NCBI GenBank assembly: GCA_010093605.1
Contig: MU004183.1
Span: forward strand, 744,001 to 808,000
Reading direction: 5' to 3'
Length of the DNA stretch: 64,000 nt
DNA from: Lophium mytilinum
Lineage: Eukaryota
Position 1 is the stretch's first letter; each line of letters begins with the position of its first letter. Under the pieces are notes generated by a model that worked only from the letters and a program-made list of their open reading frames with translations, searched no databases and was not told the origin of the DNA. Of the stretch, positions 1 to 25,862 are shown one piece after another. The translations under genes were made by a program, and so were the position numbers.

Positions 1-1464
1 AGGAACCGGATATCAACCCCGACTCTCCCCACGACCTTCTCGAGGGTACCATCAACTACTCTCCCCCCTTGCCTGAACCTCGTGCTTTAGCTAGCGCGAG
101 GCCTGGTCCTGCATGCTATTACTGACTAGAAGGATTCTCTGGGAGACTTCCGGTGCAGCACTAGTTGGCGTTTGATTTATATGCTCTTTACCGAGATTTA
201 GCTAGCTCGACGGTGCGAAATGAAAGAAACCGTCAATACCCCTATTCTGTCCTGCTCGCTTGTTCCTGCCGTGCATGTGAGTGTGACCATGGTCCTGTGG
301 AGGAGTCTAGTGAGTTTGGCTCCAGGGTAAGAAATTTGGTTCAATGTGGTATGTATGGGCTAGTTGCTTTGGCTGTTGTGGTTAACTGACTCTGCATAGT
401 CGAATGGTGTTGCACTGAGCACTTGTGTAGCTGGCACGGTACGATTGCGGCTCTAGACCTGCGTTGGTGGAGCTAGGGTTTGGACAGAGTGGTTCAGTGA
501 GACGTCTGGTTTGAGTTGGCGAGTTCCTAGCTTACCGTAATTTGTGATCGGGCTAATGCGGTCGAAACAGTGTTAGGGGAAAGGGACAGCCATGGGTGAG
601 AAACGTCAGCGAAAGAATGGTTTTGGAGACTGGCTAGCAAGATTGGGATTTTTGCAAGTTGCTGGGTTAGGAATGGTGGTTGGGGTGAGGAATGCGGATA
701 GGAGGTTTGTTGCGGTGAGTTCACGTGACTAGTTTTACGATAAGACTATCTGACAGCGTCGAAAGCTATACATGGAGTTGATTTCGGGAAGGAATATTAA
801 TGCCTGCTGTTAGCGCGGAGACCGGTATCAAAAGTGTACGCATTCTGCATGTGTTTATCTCCTTTCGATATATTATAGCTGTCGTAAGTAAGCTCAAAAA
901 GTGTCGAGGTGAGACGATATCTGTCTTCTAGTTTCCTTGAAACCCCTTCGATTTCCGACCACGCTCGCATGGCAGAAGACAGTCGTAGCTTGTAGGCAAG
1001 CGTCGTAATAGCTGAGCTTGTGCTACGCCTCCAACCGTGTTACCCCGGATTACTCTCTAATCTTCTGGTTCCCACCTCTTCCTTGAGACTGAGACGATTC
1101 GCTGCACAAGTATGGTGGCATCCTTCGAGTCTCGTAGGCCTTATGTGTAGCTTCTACTTTAAGTCAACTGGAGGGGTCGGTCGTAGAATTTGGAGGTCTG
1201 AAATTGCGAGACGAGGGAGAAGAAGCGGAACTGCCATGCTCTCAGCATCTGCTCCCTATATCTCTTCTGTTGAGCTTAGACATCGCTGACCCTGCTGTAT
1301 AGAAAACTACATAATCAAGCTGTGTGAATCACGTGATATGCGAACAGACCGTTGTCGCGATGATCTCGACTTTCATTCACTCCACCACCGAAATGGCTCG
1401 TTTCTTTCTGCCAACTCACGACGTTCAACAATGACTCAATCCTCCACCTTACAAGTTCTTCAAG

Positions 1465-3869
1465 ATGGGCCGCAAGACAAACGTTGAGGAGTTCCTAGTC
1501 GACCTACGCTCAAGGCATCCCAAGTTGCGGTCCGCGCAGGATGTGCAGGAAGCCATTGGTGAAGGAAGTATCCAAAATGCAGTCATAGACTGTGTGCGCT
1601 ATCTCGAACTTGAGTGGGCATGCGATGGAGAATGGGGCGTTCATCTGAAGTTCCGCGTAAGTACTGATATCCCATGGACTGTTCTTTCCCTAATTGGTCT
1701 TAGAGTGGCCCGTTCCGTGACGCCGTAAGACTATGTTTACAAGGACAACCTCCTCGCCACCAGTTCGCATCCTTTCTTCGCAGCCTACCGACCTGGGATG
1801 GAGATGCAGAAAAGGCGAAATACCTCGTGTCCGTGCTTACTACCGACGATCGGCGTGTCTTCGATCTTCATGACACGACGGGACTACAGTCTTTCGTTGC
1901 CTACCTCGCGGTCTTGAAAAATGCTCTGTCTTCTCCTACCGGCAGTTTGCGCCCGCCGCGGTTGTCTGATGAAGCTCTACGGGATCAGCTAGAATCAGGA
2001 GACTTCTCAAATCCCTATTTCTTAGAGGCGAGAGAAGACGTCCGTAGAGGGGCATTGTGCGATGCTCTCCTCAACTTTACCAAGCCATTCTGTCTACGCA
2101 CCCATGTTAACTTTAACAATAACAGTGTTTTGACATTCAAGGTATTTCACCCGAGAACATATGATGCCGCGGCTGTCACTGACCTCACTAAGCAACGCGG
2201 TCTCGAGGCGACTTCGATACTACGTCTAGACCACAGTGTAGTTCGAAAGGATGGACCTCCCGCATACTCCTCAATTGTGTTGCTTCGTGGTTTGGGTGAA
2301 GACGAGTACGTGTACGGCAGTTGGACGAATAATGCCGTGGTCCAAGATTACCTCAAAGAGGGAGAGTATCCATCGCATCATCTCCAGGACAGTGATATCG
2401 TCTTTGACTTGTCCAAAGCGCGGTCAGCGTACAATCTTCTTGGAGCTCTACTTCGTCGCCGTGATAGGCGAATCCAAGGTGGAAGCTTCTCGCAGAGTGA
2501 TAAACAAGTCTGCCATGCAAACTTGGACATGGGCCTATCTTTGGCAGACTCTAATTTCTTGGAGGACCTCCTCGCAGACGATCCCCGAACAAGCGAAGCG
2601 GCAGCCGCGCAGCATCACATCGAGTGGGGACAATTAGTTTTCGCCGTACGAGGTTGCTTGCAATACCTGGGCTTCAATTGGCAGTATAATGGAGAGTTCA
2701 GCAATTACCTTCGGTTTTCTGTAAGTCGTAAATTTATCTGTACATGCCGGACCTAATGAAACCAGATTCCTCCGTTTCAAGGCATAGCGGCGATATCTTT
2801 CCAAGGCCTGATTCCCGTCTTTCGCACTGGAATCTTCTTCGAAAGCCCCGTTTCCCACCACGAACAGAAGGACCAAGCCAAACTTGTTGCGGCTGTAATC
2901 ACTGCGGAGCAGAGATGTGAGTTCAGCCTCCACGACAAGCAAGGGCTACACGCGCTCGTATCTCATATATTGTCTTTGAAGAAGAGTCTACAATCTGGAA
3001 CGGGCACTCTTCGTTCACCAAGGCTGTCTGATGAAGATCTGCTCAGCCAACTGGATAGAGAAGACTACCGCAACCCTTACTTCATTGAGGCCAGAGAAGA
3101 TATTCGGCGAGGTTGTCTAGTCGACGCGCTTTTGAACTTCACAAAGCCATTCCGCATAGGCTCATATAAGCCTTTTGAAGAACGAGGGAGAATCGAATTC
3201 AAGGTTTGTTACTCCCGTATTCGGCTTTGCATCGTTGCATCTCACTTATCTTCACTAGCAACATGGTCTTCGATCGATCTCCGTGCATCGCCTCGACAGG
3301 CTCGTGTACGCCAGTATGCAAGTCCCTGCATACTCTACAATTGTTGTCCTCCGAGGCATTAAAGTGAAAGAAGAGTCCTTTGGCGTCCGGGTTTTCAATC
3401 ACAGCGCGCTCGTAAGCTACATTCAAAACGAGGATTTCCCCTCCGATCGTCTCCAAGACAGGGATATCGCCTTTGACTTGGCTCTTCCGAGATCAGTCTT
3501 CGACCTCATGACGGCTCTTCTCGCTCATCGAGATAGGCGAGCCAAGGCCAGAAACTCCGCACAATCCGCAGATACGAAGGTCGGCTCACATGTGCCTCAC
3601 AAGGACACTTCTATTTCGATACATAACGATTCGCTGAAACCTCACGGAGTACTGAAGCGAAAGACTAAAGAGAAGCTGAAGCCCTTGGCAATAGTGGCGA
3701 TGTTGAATCAAGCGGTATGTTTGTCTTGCTATCAGCGACCGAATCTGTAATGCTGATTGATTTGTAGAGCAAAGCACCCACTTGCTCCACTACTCCTACA
3801 CAATGGAAACGTGGCCTCACCAGCGAGAATGATCAAACACTCTACTTGTCGACTAGGAGAAGGCCTTAA
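1465..3869 (+). CDS. Orphan protein made of an internal tandem duplication (units A-B-A'-B'), six exons
   Basis: ORFs 1465, 1827, 2970 and 3283 join in frame through phase-0 GT-AG introns at 1657-1703, 2142-2192, 2721-2765, 3204-3258 and 3715-3767; stop TAA at 3867-3869. Internal repeat: LRPPRLSDEALRDQLESGDFSNPYFLEAREDVRRGALCDALLNFTKPF vs LRSPRLSDEDLLSQLDREDYRNPYFIEAREDIRRGCLVDALLNFTKPF. Confidence 0.8.
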
Positions 3870-4823
3870 GACAGACCTTCGCTCAGCACGACAGATATGC
3901 GTAACTTTTGCACACTATACGATTAAGCTTCTGCGCGATATCCCCTTAAGAGCTGGAGCGTTACACCAGCTCAGACCATCATGCAGCTCCTGATAAATCT
4001 GCCTTGGTCGTTGGAGGTCCGGCCTGCGATATGGTATTGAGACGCAGCCGATCTTGATCAGGAAGACCTTACGGTTACTGGAAGCATTGGGTGCGGCGTG
4101 TCAGAAAATATGCGAGATACTATGCCCCAAAACCAGGCTTGTAAATATGGTAGGCGGGCTCATTCTGCAAGGAGTTGAAATAAGGTGCTTTGTTCATTCT
4201 AGTCTATGTTAAATTGGCGATTTCGGGGTCAATATACCCTTGTCAATCTGAGAACCTTCCTGGAGGACCATGTCCCCTTTCTATTAAAGTTTGGCGCCTC
4301 TTCGTATAAGCTGATTAGTTCTAGAAGAATCCTATCAATTCGGAACGTTTGATGATGCTTATCATCATTGAAGTCCTCATGTAACGGAGCGCATTCGGAA
4401 TACTGCGATGTCCCGCAAACTTAGTAGGCTCTCGATTGAGAGTATCGGATACGAGGAACCAGGACGTCGAATTGGCTCATGTGTTCCTGGACCTCAATAT
4501 CGCGTGATGTTCTCGAACGTGCGCGATGTGTTGTAGGCAAAAGGTGAAGTGAACTCCGCAACGCAACTTTCCTTCACCGCGCGACGAACCCAGCCTTAGT
4601 ATTCATTCAGTCGAATAATAGAGCCTCGCAATAGGATCCTTAACACAGTCTCCCAAGTTGTTCTATAAGACACGATTGCCCAAAGCCCTCCACTTACCTC
4701 TACAGCCTCCTTCAATCTTCTCGTCCTCATTTTCGACGTACTATCTTTGACATTCCGTTCTGCAACAAACGCAATATTCTACAGCCTTTCATACCCTCAA
4801 CCCCGGTTTCAAATCAAACCAAG

Positions 4824-5902
4824 ATGTCTTCCGATACTGACTCCATTATCTGCAACTGGGAAGCAGACCCCCGAGACGAGCTCTTCATCGACCTCGCGCG
4901 ACGAAACATCCCAAATCAGCCCTTCTTCCGCTCGGTCGTGAACGAACTTAACGAGAGTCGAAGCCGCCTCATCCTACCAGCTCTAACGAAAATCTTGAAA
5001 GCATTTGGCTGGCCAACTGCGATGTCCGGAACTGGCGAGCATAGAAGGATCACATTTCGAGTAAGTATCCTATTTAATTATTCCACTGCAATGCTAATCA
5101 TAGCAAGGGTTGCTTGCTGGAGACAGTCCAGATCTTCCACCGAGGGCGCTCCAGCATGGCCCACAGGGGAGTCACGATCTTGACAGAGGACGCCCGAATC
5201 CAATGCGATGTCGGCAAGAAAGAAGGGAGGTACCAATTCCTGGCCTTCCTCATGAACCACGAGGCGGCAGAGCGCAAACTAGCCGAAGGGAAGGAGAATA
5301 AGTTCCGCGAGGTTGAGGAGGATCTCAAGAAGTGGACAGTTTGGAGAGAAGCACGGAAGTACCCTGGCAAACTGCGACTGAGTCGCGCTCGACGTACCCG
5401 AGCGACCCATTATGTGATCCAGGAGGCAGAAGATTTGACCACTACATCGCACCGTCAGGAGGCCCTGCCCGGGTTCAATCCGTGGGCAACATTCCGGCCG
5501 ACCAAGCTGTCATTTTGTGAGACCAATCCGGATATCAGTGACAGAGCCGTCGAAAGCAGCCCTCCGAGCAACACCTCTCCCTCAAAGCCTCCAAATCCGC
5601 ACACTTCTCCATCGTCTATGCACAGTTCAGCTAGGAGGTCGAAGACCCCCTCAAAGCCTCATCACCGTTCCCAAAACTGCAGAATCCAGAAGCCAAATCA
5701 CAGCCGCATGACAAAAAAATCCATTTCTAGGCATGGTCGAGACTCGATTTTGAAGGACGTTTCAAATTGGACACCCTGCTTCGAGGACACGGTTCGGCCT
5801 CTCATATCAGCCCCTCCTCCTCACCACCTCTGCCACACTCGGTATCACTGGCAGACACCCCTGGCGCATCTGGAACTATCAGGACGAAGATGTCAAATTT
5901 AG
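4824..5902 (+). CDS. Orphan protein: single-domain paralog of 1465-3869 plus a charged helix and low-complexity tail
   Basis: Exon 1 (4824-5060) ends ITFR|GTAAGT. An acceptor at 5107 puts exon 2 in the 5114 ORF frame, giving VTILTEDARIQCDVGKKEGRYQFLAFL, which aligns with VSVLTTDDRRVFDLHDTTGLQSFVAYL of the upstream gene. The acceptor choice and the 3' end are uncertain. Confidence 0.6.
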
Positions 5903-5998
5903 GAACGTTTAGACTAGAGCTGCGATTATGAATGACCATCTACCTGCTACACATGCACCTGACCCACTTCCACTCCTGATTGACCCCGTTAAAATCGC

Positions 5999-7763
5999 CT
6001 ACTGAACCTCCTGGTTCCCACTCTCCTCAACAGCCTCTTTCAAATCCCCCAAAAACCTCCACCGACCGTCCACCTTGACCGACCCCTTGTTCCACTCATT
6101 CAGGGACTTCGGAAAGACGTCCATAACGCTCGTAAGCGTATTGTCGTGCGCAATAATGACCAAGACGTCGTCGCTTGCGTCAAAAGTCTCAAGGCCGCGG
6201 ACACTTTCTCGTGTGGAATCCATGTTCTCGTGCACGCCCTCTGCTATATCGAAGAACGGCTCCGTGGGTGATTTGCTCCGATGTATTGCTTGAAAGAGCG
6301 ATCCGGGACACACGCTGTGAGGTTCACGAAGCGTAAGGGGTGACGGGCTGAGAGATTCTGGGAGGGGGAGGTAAGGCGTTGGGCGGAATTCGCCTGGGTC
6401 GTGGCAGCAATCGCCCCCGAGGAGGACAAAAGAGGAGGAAGTGGTGCGGGCGAGGGCGCTCAGGTGACCGATAGCGTGGCCTGGGGTTGACAGGAGGTAG
6501 AATGAGCCGTCGCCGAAGAAGTCATGCGCAGCGAATGGGCCGATCTTGAGGGAAGTGTCGAAAGGTGCTTCAGTCAGGGTGCGGCCGGCGTAGTCAGATT
6601 CGCGGATGGGTGACTCTGGGTTGGAGGGATAGCCAGGCATGATGGGAGATGATGTGAGGCCGGGGCCTACGATGAGGGACGTTGTTGAGGGGAAAGTGGT
6701 CATGTCGCCGATGCTGTTAGAAGTTTTTTCAGTAAACGAATTCTTTTGCAAACGAGTTCGAGTGTGGTATGCGACAGTGATAGGCCATAAGTTGGGGCGC
6801 ACGGAAACTCCACTGCCCGGGCTCCATCTTTGCTCGCTCGATACCACTGAGAGGAGTGGCCTGGCTAGCAGGCTGTTGGTCGGTCAAAAGGAAGCCTGGT
6901 TCTGCCCGAATTGGCCTTCATAATGAGGCCACGGATGTAGGTCTCTACAGCTGCGCTTTTGCTCACTCAATACCACTATGAGGATGGCCCCAGCTGGTAG
7001 GTCGTCAGACGGTCAAGAGGAAGCCTGATTTCCAGTGCCTTAACCTTTACATCGTGGCACCAATATCCCGCAGGTCAGTCGCAACTCTTGCTCACTCAAT
7101 ACCACGGTAAGGAAGGCCCCAGTTGGTAGTTCGCCGGGCAGTCAAGAGGCAGCCCAACTTCCACTGTATCGAACTTGACATTCTTTCTGGAGCTTAAAGT
7201 GCCCAAAGCGATACCCTAGCAGCGACGGATCGATGTGCGCAGAATGATGGCCTACCACTGTATGCTAAAAAGAATTTGCTTACTGGTCCCAATGCCAATG
7301 ACTCCAGATGACAGATTCGATCTCTGACGGGTTGATCCCGTTCTCAGACAAGACGTCGGATACGCCCTTCTCGGCTTCGATCTTCGTGCCGATTTGTTCG
7401 TTCATTGCAGTAATAGCGGGCGACAGGTTCTCCCAGTCTTTTCGAACGCTTAAATCAAATAGAAGCTTACGACCGGAAGGATGCTCGATCAAGGTTGAGT
7501 AGGACGGAGCGGAGATCCATTCTTTGCCTTTAAACACAGGGGTCAGGAAGAGACCGAATGGCAGTGATATTCGGGTATTTCTGTTGAGAACGCGTTAGAG
7601 ATGTGGCCTCATACTCATGGAAAAGATGAGTAGTGAAAAGCGGTGCCTATCATTAGGATGAGACGTACGTATCTATCACCGAAACTTTGACTGTGCTTGA
7701 CGAGGACGGGATCTGAAGATTAGGAGCTGGCTTTGGTGCAGCTAGACAACCGTGGGACGACAT
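5999..7763 (-). CDS. Metallo-beta-lactamase-fold hydrolase (AHL-lactonase/gamma-lactamase-like)
   Basis: Exons 7763-7669, 7580-7284 and 6713-5999. Splicing restores IWSHWHWDHIGD (HxHxDH). Also DFFGDGSFYLLSTPGHAIGH, LGGDCCH and IIAHD metal-ligand motifs. Confidence 0.92.
6780..7190. repeat. 129-bp tandem repeat (about 3-3.5 copies) inside MBL intron 2
   Basis: The core TTGCTCRCTCRATACCAC...GTCAARAGGMAGCC starts near 6830, 6959 and 7088, a 129-bp period. Confidence 0.9.
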
Positions 7764-23802: not shown

Positions 23803-25862
23803 TCAAGGCTTCACATCCCACTCCGCAACGACCTCCTCTAACGATTTCTTCCCCTTCCTAACGCCCCCATCCCACGCATACTCTTCCACCCGTTCGGGGA
23901 CCGTCTCCCATACACACTTCACCAGCAACCTCGTCTGCTCTAGGTTGATGCGCAAATGCTTCCTGGGCTGCTTAGAAGCATCCGATGGGCTCAGCTTTCG
24001 CGGCTGTTTTGTGAGCTTTGGAAGCCCTTTCAGCGGCGCCCATCCGCTTAATGCTTTTGCAATCACGGAAGTGGATAGGTCAAGCGAAATGACGAGGTCG
24101 ATGTAAGACGTCAGGTCCGCAAGGGTCGTAAATGTGAACGTGCCGGCTGTGACTACTTCAGAGGAGATGGCTGTTGCTACCGACTGCGGGAGCGAGAGAG
24201 TGTATCTAGTACCGAATGTGGGTTTAGTGACAAGGGTATGGATCGCGATGTTAAGCGGTTCTTGTTGTATGGCACTTTTGAGAGAGGAGGGGAGGTCTAT
24301 CGATGCAGTTGTTGTCTGCGGTATGATGAGAGTGCTGACGAGTTTATCTGCAGAGGATTTTGTTTCTGTGGGCGAGGTTTTGATGGTTTCGGTGAGGTTG
24401 GATAGTTTGGGATCGAATTTGAGTTTCGTGGAGACGTTCAGTCCGGCGCTCGAGAGAATTGCTTTCGTGTTCTGGAGATAGTCTTGGACAGACTGAATGG
24501 CCTGAGCGTTATGAAAGTAGTTCAACAATGGGCGTAGGATTGGAGGTGGTAGGTTCGGTGTCTTCTGTTCAGAGAGAGGGCGGGGGGTTTGTGACCGGTC
24601 ATGCAGGCGCTGCCTATGGGCGTGTAATAGAAGCACGCGGAGGGCTTCGACTACGTTCCGAGCAACAGAGTCCGACGAGTGGTCGTCTATCTGCGGCAAT
24701 GTCTCATCCAGGAGCACGATGTCGATCAGTACGATCCGCTTCGATTCATCTGTTGCCGGTGCTGGAAGATGAATCACCGAGTCTCGCATTCTGACCTCGT
24801 GAGACAGTAGTATTCGAGTCTCTAGAGACATTTCATGGTAGAGCTCTTCCTCAAACAAGGAATCTCGTGCCCGCCGTATCAAGTCTTCGATAGATGGCTG
24901 AGTTATGCCGTCTGCCGAAGGTAATTTGGAGCTGCCGGTGATTCTACCATCCTCCTGAATCCGAACACGCACTGCCTTTGGTTTCTGGCTAAGTCCTGCG
25001 TCGAGTATGATGCCTCCCTTGTCATCCATCCGCAAGGGTGAGAACCCACGGCTCTTGAAATGGTCGCTCGCTTATGATTGAAGTTAGTTAACATCCGATG
25101 GCGTCGAAACATGGCTACCCGAGTTCACTTACCTTCCGAAAAGCCGAATTGAACACCCAAAATCGCTTTACGACCTTCTCTAGTTATCCGACGGACTGAC
25201 CATCCCTTCTGAGCAATTGATAGCACTTCTTCCCAGTATTGTGTCTCCTTGCGAACCTCGCTCTCTAGTCGAGTCGCTGCTTGCAAGACACTATCAGCAG
25301 CATCCTCTAGCCCCTTCATCCTCCAACCCTTCGCGGCGAGCTCTTGCCTACGCTTTTCTGGGGCATCTAGCTCTTTTAGAGGCCATTTGTCAATACCCAG
25401 AGTACCTGGCAGTTTGTATTGTTTGACATAGGGCGACAAGGTGGTATCGGCAAGCTTCGGAGCATCTCGAGAGACAAGAAGGGACAGGTAATCCTGTATA
25501 TAGCGCGCTTCATTCAAGGCAGTTCTAGTGAAAGCTCAGCTGTGCTCTTGAGAGACTCTGTATAAGACAATATACCCTATAAAGCCCACCATCTGCATTT
25601 TGGCTTTCATCAGTTCTTCCCAACGTTCCTTCTCATCTTGTGCCGGAGCCTCCTCGCCCTCTTCCACACCCTCCATCACATCATCGATTCCATCCTTTTC
25701 AGTGGCGATCTCCTCTCGGAGGCCTTCCTCGGTGATGTGTCGGAAGTGCCCTCGTTGCTGAAAGAGCCGCGCGAACTGCAGCTGGATGTCGTCTGACGAG
25801 GGATCTTCGGTGGGCCATGGGCGTAGCGAAACAGGAAGCGATTCAGACTCTATATCAGCCAT
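23803..25862 (-). CDS. MED17: Mediator subunit 17 (Srb4)
   Basis: VSLRPWP, QRGHFRHITEEGLREEI, ATRLESEVRKETQYWEEVL, GVQFGFSE, ARDSLFEEELYHE; two introns. Confidence 0.92.

Follow-up and report, generated by a model that had tools for sequence, protein, structure and literature searches.

Two neighbouring genes of Lophium mytilinum, a wood-dwelling dothideomycete of the order Mytilinidiales, carry five copies of one protein domain, and a single intron marks the same place in every copy. The genes lie in a window of 64,000 nucleotides (GenBank assembly GCA_010093605.1, contig MU004183.1, positions 744,001 to 808,000 of the forward strand; positions below count from the first letter of the window). 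Gene 1 (1465..3869, +) encodes four copies, arranged as two successive modules of an A lobe and a B lobe. Gene 2 (4824..5902, +) encodes a single copy. We consider it likely that the anatomy and history described here for gene 1, gene 2 and the A+B family are correct, a judgement that excludes any guess at function. An ancestral domain gene with one intron would have given rise to an A+B gene before the sampled family radiated, and only in the Lophium lineage would the A+B gene have grown to four lobes.

In L. mytilinum, gene 1 is expressed and its annotation is correct. Its six exons (1465-1656, 1704-2141, 2193-2720, 2766-3203, 3259-3714 and 3768-3869, +, stop included) splice to a 717-residue protein that reproduces every letter of the public 'hypothetical protein BU16DRAFT_613958 [Lophium mytilinum]' (P0001). 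The 339-residue open frame at 1704-2720 is 95% identical to that protein; the remaining 5% is made up of 17 codons of in-frame intron. All four lobes carry a phase-0 intron after the second strand. Lobe A1 (residues 1-146, 1465..1949) is split by intron 1 (1657-1703, 47 nucleotides, after HLKFR), and lobe B1 (residues 147-322, 1950..2528) by intron 2 (2142-2192, 51 nucleotides, after VLTFK). Lobe A2 (residues 323-468, 2529..3011) is split by intron 3 (2721-2765, 45 nucleotides, after YLRFS), and lobe B2 (residues 469-645, 3012..3597) by intron 4 (3204-3258, 55 nucleotides, after RIEFK). A basic tail follows (residues 646-717, 3598..3869) that contains a fifth intron (3715-3767, 53 nucleotides), also in phase 0. 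The first-pass annotation of the window, made from the letters alone, had placed these genes, their motifs and their phase-0 introns accurately. Its repeat unit of about 140 residues falls short of the B lobes (~165-176 residues).

Evidence for splicing comes from contigs of a public sequencing run, here called X1, which is tentatively labelled 'RNA?' (the label is a guess) and which has half of the sampled words from 1300-6000. The contigs are 100% identical to the window and cross all five gene 1 introns with GT..AG ends. Two of them (records 1 and 3) are placed on 1302-2916 and 2982-4187 with no differing letters; at the lobe-B introns the joints read 2138>2190 (cut +3) and 3201>3257 (cut +2). 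Contigs that lack every intron are hardly genomic, and we therefore accept that gene 1 is transcribed and has the annotated splicing. The spliced contigs extend over 1302..4187, which gives a 5' untranslated region of at least 163 nucleotides and a 3' untranslated region of about 318 nucleotides. The proposed check of the splice junctions against RNA, as far as X1 is RNA, supports the five introns of gene 1; no X1 contig lies over gene 2.

A minor X1 joint (depth 2.7 versus ~7) removes 2917-2981 (65 nucleotides, GTGAGT..AG) within exon 4 and would shift the frame within lobe A2. It may represent a minor unproductive isoform or an assembly artefact.

The first level of repetition in gene 1 is plain. 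The protein is a head-to-tail doubling of a module of ~322 residues, each module consisting of lobe A (~146 residues) and lobe B (~170 residues). Residues 1-312 align with residues 323-635 with a single one-residue gap (Smith-Waterman score 575) and an overall identity of 41%, which is 32% between the A lobes and 48% between the B lobes. None of 500 shuffles reaches the score of either lobe pair (z 40 for A1 against A2, 75 for B1 against B2). The second half opens with ATG-GGC (2529-2534; Met323-Gly324), which stands opposite Met1-Gly2 in the alignment. This resembles a relic start codon, and because it is aligned to the true one, the doubling most likely arose by fusion of two tandem genes, not by internal exon duplication. 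The fusion would have followed loss of the tail of the first gene copy together with the intervening spacer. A six-frame scan with the family hidden Markov model (HMM) found no further copies of the domain in the window.

Gene 1 has relatives, and the term 'orphan' that it had been given is therefore too strong: a phmmer search with P0001 against 1.84 billion cluster representatives uncovered a distant, small, uncurated and class-restricted family. Eleven proteins, P0001 included, matched at E≤1e-3. Within the matched stretches the identity of the relatives to gene 1 is 26-40%, and the best relative is 28% identical. P0002 (346 residues, E 8.3e-17) matches residues 332-637 of P0001 and spans one whole A+B module. 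P0003 and P0004 are fragments, and P0005 to P0011 have one module each with unrelated extensions, several of them long and N- or C-terminal. All ten relatives match the seed HMM at E≤2e-14, and the eight that are long enough for both lobes have A followed by B once each; the doubled module is found in gene 1 only. Gene 1 and these proteins share the A+B order, the linker TGxLRPP and the start of lobe B (PxFxEA...LDA...PFGL).

Every relative with a name comes from the Dothideomycetes and is annotated as a hypothetical protein: Lojkania enalia KAF2267971.1 (P0005), Aulographum hederae KAF1991300.1 (P0006), Patellaria atrata KAF2843464.1 (P0008), Polyplosphaeria fusca KAF2738061.1 (P0009) and Lophiotrema nucula KAF2115943.1 (P0011). 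The others are P0002-P0004, P0007 and P0010, of which P0003 and P0004 are open reading frames called from metagenomes. The A+B module thus defines a small family without a Pfam entry, seen so far in Dothideomycetes and in unnamed environmental fungal contigs.

Searches of other collections agree with the initial impression that the family was not a recognisable one. All the relatives are uncharacterised, and none matches Pfam-A (2025) at the curated cut-off (0/10). Five of the six exon translations of gene 1 and gene 2 have no Pfam-A family at E≤1; for the sixth, BREX_BrxC_helical alone comes up, with 14.9 bits where 27 are required. Protein Data Bank (PDB) sequences gave no match to P0001. 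The ESM Atlas gave no usable match to P0001 (template modelling (TM) score ≤0.26), and for the gene 2 protein it gave feature scores of 0.81, below the bar of 0.9, again with TM ≤0.26. Word-based homologue searches returned P0001 only and, with the family alignment, only P0002 and the gene 2 protein, whose score there was inflated because the alignment included gene 2's own exons. In the literature searched, no paper names any of six family-member locus tags, and none of the papers listed for Lophium mytilinum genomes deals with this A+B family. One candidate, RGS16, came up when the family profile was compared with the PDB (E 0.012-0.048); it fell on poorly aligned columns of the N-terminal extension and was judged spurious.

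Three of the relatives call for comment as gene models. P0003 and P0004 both continue past a ...F-Q into 'V...' and stop shortly after. For P0003 the Val is read from the GT that opens the lobe-B intron on its environmental contig (L001, position 3361), so that the protein reads into the intron; P0004, judged by its sequence, probably does likewise. P0011 has a long Ser/Thr-rich C-terminal part (residues ~470-710) that resembles a different, possibly secreted or wall-bound protein, and its gene model may be a false fusion.

The second level of repetition is far older: A and B are ancient copies of one domain. It is the profiles of the relatives that recover this homology, and by pairwise evidence alone the claim of five copies would fail. 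Each lobe profile had ten rows, eight from relatives and two from the halves of gene 1; the fragments P0003 and P0004 were left out. Local comparison of the A and B profiles with hhalign gave a score of 46.1 (probability 92.8%, P 3.8e-7), whereas the reversed B profile scored 11.7 and 30 column shuffles at most 16.8. A global alignment covers 133 columns (P 3.6e-8) and matches VFDLHDTTGLQSFVAYL to VFDLSKARSAYNLLGAL, the pairing that the first-pass annotation had proposed. Most of the signal resides in the halves encoded by the first exons (score 41.8, P 1.3e-8).

Could only the doubling of 322 residues be real, with the likeness of A to B a product of chance short motifs and common intron contexts? 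Pairwise comparison of A with B is at the level of shuffled sequences (z -0.6 to 2.1; between 23 and 386 of 500 shuffles reach the scores), the second halves on their own are weak (18.3, P 0.0056, 26 columns), and the profiles have few rows (10, with a Neff of ~4-6). We nevertheless regard such a coincidence as highly improbable. The profile score exceeds that of all 31 controls, and the alignments are colinear: crossed comparisons of first with second halves score only 9.4-9.7. A plain HMM of A reaches into the beginning of B1 as well (independent E-value 0.014). The predicted order of secondary structure elements is identical in the two lobes. Finally, the last residues before the intron, R64 in A and K210 in B, occupy one column of the A/B profile alignment, so that the phase-0 introns of both lobes fall on the same aligned column.

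The intron site is conserved beyond Lophium. Two environmental contigs each hold one A+B gene, L001 encoding P0003 (100% identity) and L002 a 56% relative. Their introns (53 and 52 nucleotides in L001, 52 and 51 in L002) have GT..AG ends and stand at the same two sites as in gene 1. With splice sites read from the sequence alone, all four sites carry introns, and a frame change forces three of the four. The retention of introns in both contigs indicates that the site is old within the family and common to A and B.

In gene 1 (2142-2192) and likewise in L002 (1193-1243) the lobe-B intron is 51 nucleotides long, keeps the frame and contains no stop. Retained in either gene, it would add 17 residues and leave the protein unbroken.

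A tree of 21 lobes (10 A, 10 B and gene 2) orders the duplications. All B lobes fall to one side of a single branch (97/96). The A lobes of gene 1 pair with each other (97/90), which makes the step from two to four lobes specific to the Lophium lineage. Because the intron kept its position through both rounds, it is older than the domain duplication. A history of one, then two, then four lobes had been suggested from gene 1 and gene 2 alone, and it is upheld by the relatives with one A and one B each, by the tree and by the common intron column.

Gene 2 encodes an old and much diverged domain copy that resembles lobe A most closely; behind it comes a basic tail predicted to be disordered. Exons 4824-5060 and 5108-5902 (with the stop) encode 343 residues and correspond exactly to the public protein BU16DRAFT_556649 (P0012). 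The intron (5061-5107, 47 nucleotides, phase 0, GT..AG with an AAG acceptor) follows RITFR. The single A-like domain, as delimited by hhalign against the A profile, occupies residues 18-129 (4875..5257). Residues 165-343 (5363..5899) form a predicted disordered tail that is rich in Ser, Pro and Arg, has a net charge of +15 and is modelled with a predicted local distance difference test score (pLDDT) below 50.

Membership of gene 2 in the family rests on the profile comparison. Residues 18-129 score 44.7 against the A profile (P 3.6e-7, 108 columns), compared with a mean of 12.2 and a maximum of 21.1 for 150 shuffles and 13.5 for the reversed sequence. This result and the A/B comparison bear out the idea of one domain present five times. 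The match continues colinearly past the intron and sets GE and F in conserved columns, and the gene 2 intron falls on the same column as the lobe introns in the A profile alignment. Against the B profile gene 2 scores 28.3 (P 4e-4), and in the profile comparison no match extends into a B lobe. The first-pass annotation saw a start like B and an end like A; the first exon proved to be equally close to both (A 25.8, B 24.9), and only the second exon prefers A (25.2 versus 8.5 for B). Once the gene 1 rows are removed from the A profile gene 2 scores 39.0, and against a profile of just those rows it scores 19.7; this identifies gene 2 as an old member of the family and not a recent copy of gene 1.

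Gene 2 had been described as a monomeric form kept beside gene 1. On a long branch, it does stand on the A side of the tree, where it may lie inside or outside the A clade (A without gene 2, 74/70). Moreover, the second half of B is expanded by long loops, so that 'A-like' may simply mean 'ancestral-like'. Gene 2 could thus be a kept ancestral monomer or a diverged partial copy.

It is unlikely, in our estimation, that gene 2 is not a working gene at all but a partial copy in decay, or a product of over-prediction with a long frame that is open by chance. Such a reading can draw on several features. The frame that continues the domain requires the AG at 5106-5107, and the AAG acceptor used there has a TAG four bases upstream (5101-5103) that would shift the frame and yield a product of 144 residues. 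More than half of the protein is predicted to be disordered, the Atlas model is poor, and no relative of the tail was found. The X1 contigs provide no cover over 4283-5852, which by the rule of the tool is in itself no evidence and speaks neither way on expression. On the other side, the public annotation has exactly this splice, the frame is open for 264 codons past the intron, the family match runs colinearly across the intron with GE and F in place, and the intron site is the family's own. The support for the gene 2 intron is the public annotation and homology, and gene 2 is probably a working gene.

Structure prediction provides a picture of the domain. An AlphaFold2 model of P0002, built on the 11-row family alignment, has a pLDDT of 74 and a predicted TM score of 0.72. 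In lobe A the model places helices at residues 4-13, 20-30 and 34-44, five strands within residues 49-100 and a long helix at 104-120. In lobe B the helices are at 135-144, 150-160 and 164-174, five strands with long loops lie within 179-274, and the long helix is at 278-297. The predicted order is therefore identical in both lobes: three helices, five strands and a long helix, with the intron site after the second strand. The model of P0012, also made with the family alignment, has the same order of elements in residues 16-154 (pLDDT 70-85) and is disordered from residue 167. This is no independent proof, because the family alignment guided the model. Prediction of a complex of two copies of P0012 residues 14-165 scored 0.00, a result that counts neither for nor against dimerization.

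The predicted core may be described as a helix-sheet-helix sandwich of the frataxin type, preceded by two additional helices, a description by which we claim no membership. Foldseek against the PDB gave nothing at E≤0.001 (best E 0.29). In a wide VIA structure search the models of P0002 and P0012 share their top chains, with 5n9j_W and 7emf_A in both lists, and P0012 has the same top structural neighbours as P0002 lobe A. The top weak neighbour is the Med17 C-terminal domain of Mediator (4h62_Q, 5n9j_W). Likeness at the level of fold, within the noise of the tool and without sequence relation, also extends to frataxin/CyaY (4hs5, 2fql, 6nzu), the FP domain of Fbxo7/PI31 (4l9c, 4ouh), type III secretion chaperones (1s28, 1ttw, 1xkp) and the TriTu immunity protein (7zhm_D); the T4 MotA C-terminal domain is listed as well.

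Iron binding by frataxin and CyaY depends on an acidic ridge along their first helix and strand. Might the domain be a distant true member of the frataxin/CyaY or Med17 C-terminal family, sharing a role in iron-sulfur assembly or Mediator binding? The two models independently rank the same chains at the top, 5n9j_W and 7emf_A among them. We find the proposal scarcely credible: sequence identity is 5-14%, Pfam shows no match to Frataxin_Cyay (PF01491), and Med17 (PF10156) has no sequence match to gene 1, the gene 2 exons or the relatives. No frataxin chain was found among PDB sequence matches, and Foldseek returned nothing at E≤0.001. Unlike frataxin, the new domain begins with two additional helices, ends in a much longer one and is paired in tandem. 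The window, furthermore, already has an ordinary Med17 gene.

That genuine Med17 gene (23803-25071, -, Pfam E 6e-44) lies 18 kb away, and we take its presence to be a coincidence.

Several observations weigh against our interpretation of one family with five Lophium lobes and deserve to be set out together. The pairwise A/B scores and the weak second halves have been given above. Single exons of gene 2 are not significant in plain HMMER (E 0.1-0.39), no X1 contig covers gene 2, and the likeness of the P0012 model owes something to the family alignment that guided it. Atlas models made from single sequences are of low quality (pLDDT 0.36 for P0012 and 0.57 for P0001). The fold-search rows span residues 1-126 of the P0002 model and barely cover lobe B. 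The range of the family rests on 11 representatives, and a nuclear location, discussed below, is argued from basic tails only.

Both halves of gene 1 have long been kept by purifying selection, as the intact frames had suggested. Between the halves the proportion of nonsynonymous differences (pN) is 0.40 and that of synonymous differences (pS) 0.75; the latter is saturated, which precludes an overall ratio of nonsynonymous to synonymous rates (dN/dS). For the B lobes dS is 2.63 and dN 0.47 (dN/dS ~0.18).

The two genes had been proposed, speculatively, as an intracellular pair that evolves fast and serves recognition or conflict, for example in allorecognition or as toxin and antidote. We found no evidence for this and hold it to be very unlikely. 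Two family members do stand side by side, and no close orthologue of gene 1 was found, word searches returning only P0001 itself. Yet selection on both halves of gene 1 is purifying, gene 2 shows no special closeness to gene 1 within the family, Pfam scans of the exons and relatives show no HET, NLR, toxin or nuclease family, and the structural match is within the stated noise of the tool. The neighbours in the window are housekeeping genes as well (an actin-related protein, Paf1, Med17 and ISN1).

What, then, might these proteins do? The assertion that neither has a signal peptide holds: a Kyte-Doolittle scan (a simple scan, not a trained predictor) found no signal peptide or membrane helix, with maximum 19-residue means of 1.52 for P0001 and 1.08 for P0012, and both N-termini are hydrophilic. 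Most family members have Lys/Arg-rich stretches after lobe B; in gene 1, residues 636-717 have a net charge of +9 and include KRKTKEKLK at residue 665. No catalytic-looking invariant set stands out in the family alignment, where the only invariant or near-invariant residues are M1, P4, L138, A167, F61 and F175 (P0002 numbering). We tentatively suggest, while thinking it rather less probable than its opposite, that the gene products are soluble and intracellular, possibly nuclear, and serve without catalysis as binding or scaffold modules, the A and B lobes packing into a pseudo-dimer.

The A-B linker, TGxLRPP followed by DE.L (P0001 residues 141-151 and 463-473, at ~1932-1964 and ~2994-3026), shows some of the highest conservation in the family, although its pLDDT in the P0002 model is below 50. 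It may be a short functional motif.

Two features lie just downstream of gene 2. The neighbouring minus-strand gene (5999-7594, -) has no Pfam match at E≤0.001 and contains the motif SHWHWDQ (H-W-H-W-D), which resembles HxHxDH in hydrolases of the metallo-beta-lactamase fold. A unit of ~129 nucleotides is present in three direct copies (6827-7181, 66-77% identity over 97 nucleotides) between the minus-strand open frames 5999-6883 and 7280-7594; Tandem Repeats Finder missed them (6600-7400).

Until a function is found the family is of modest interest and touches no long-standing question, and nothing in it points to a defence, conflict or metabolic system. A bolder proposition, which we think unlikely, would make A+B an undescribed fold family of one fungal class, and gene 2 the living descendant of the one-lobe ancestor that preceded the A/B duplication. 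Were that true, the pseudo-dimer, the conserved flexible TGxLRPP linker and the basic tails would be the marks of a nuclear adaptor of a new kind, or of a regulated switch, and one locus would preserve the one-, two- and four-lobe stages of domain growth with the intron as their marker. As it stands, the work adds a family of the grade of a domain of unknown function and a clean example of nested duplication (one, two, four lobes), useful for family curation in Pfam and similar collections, and suited to textbooks as an illustration of how duplication and fusion make genes grow.

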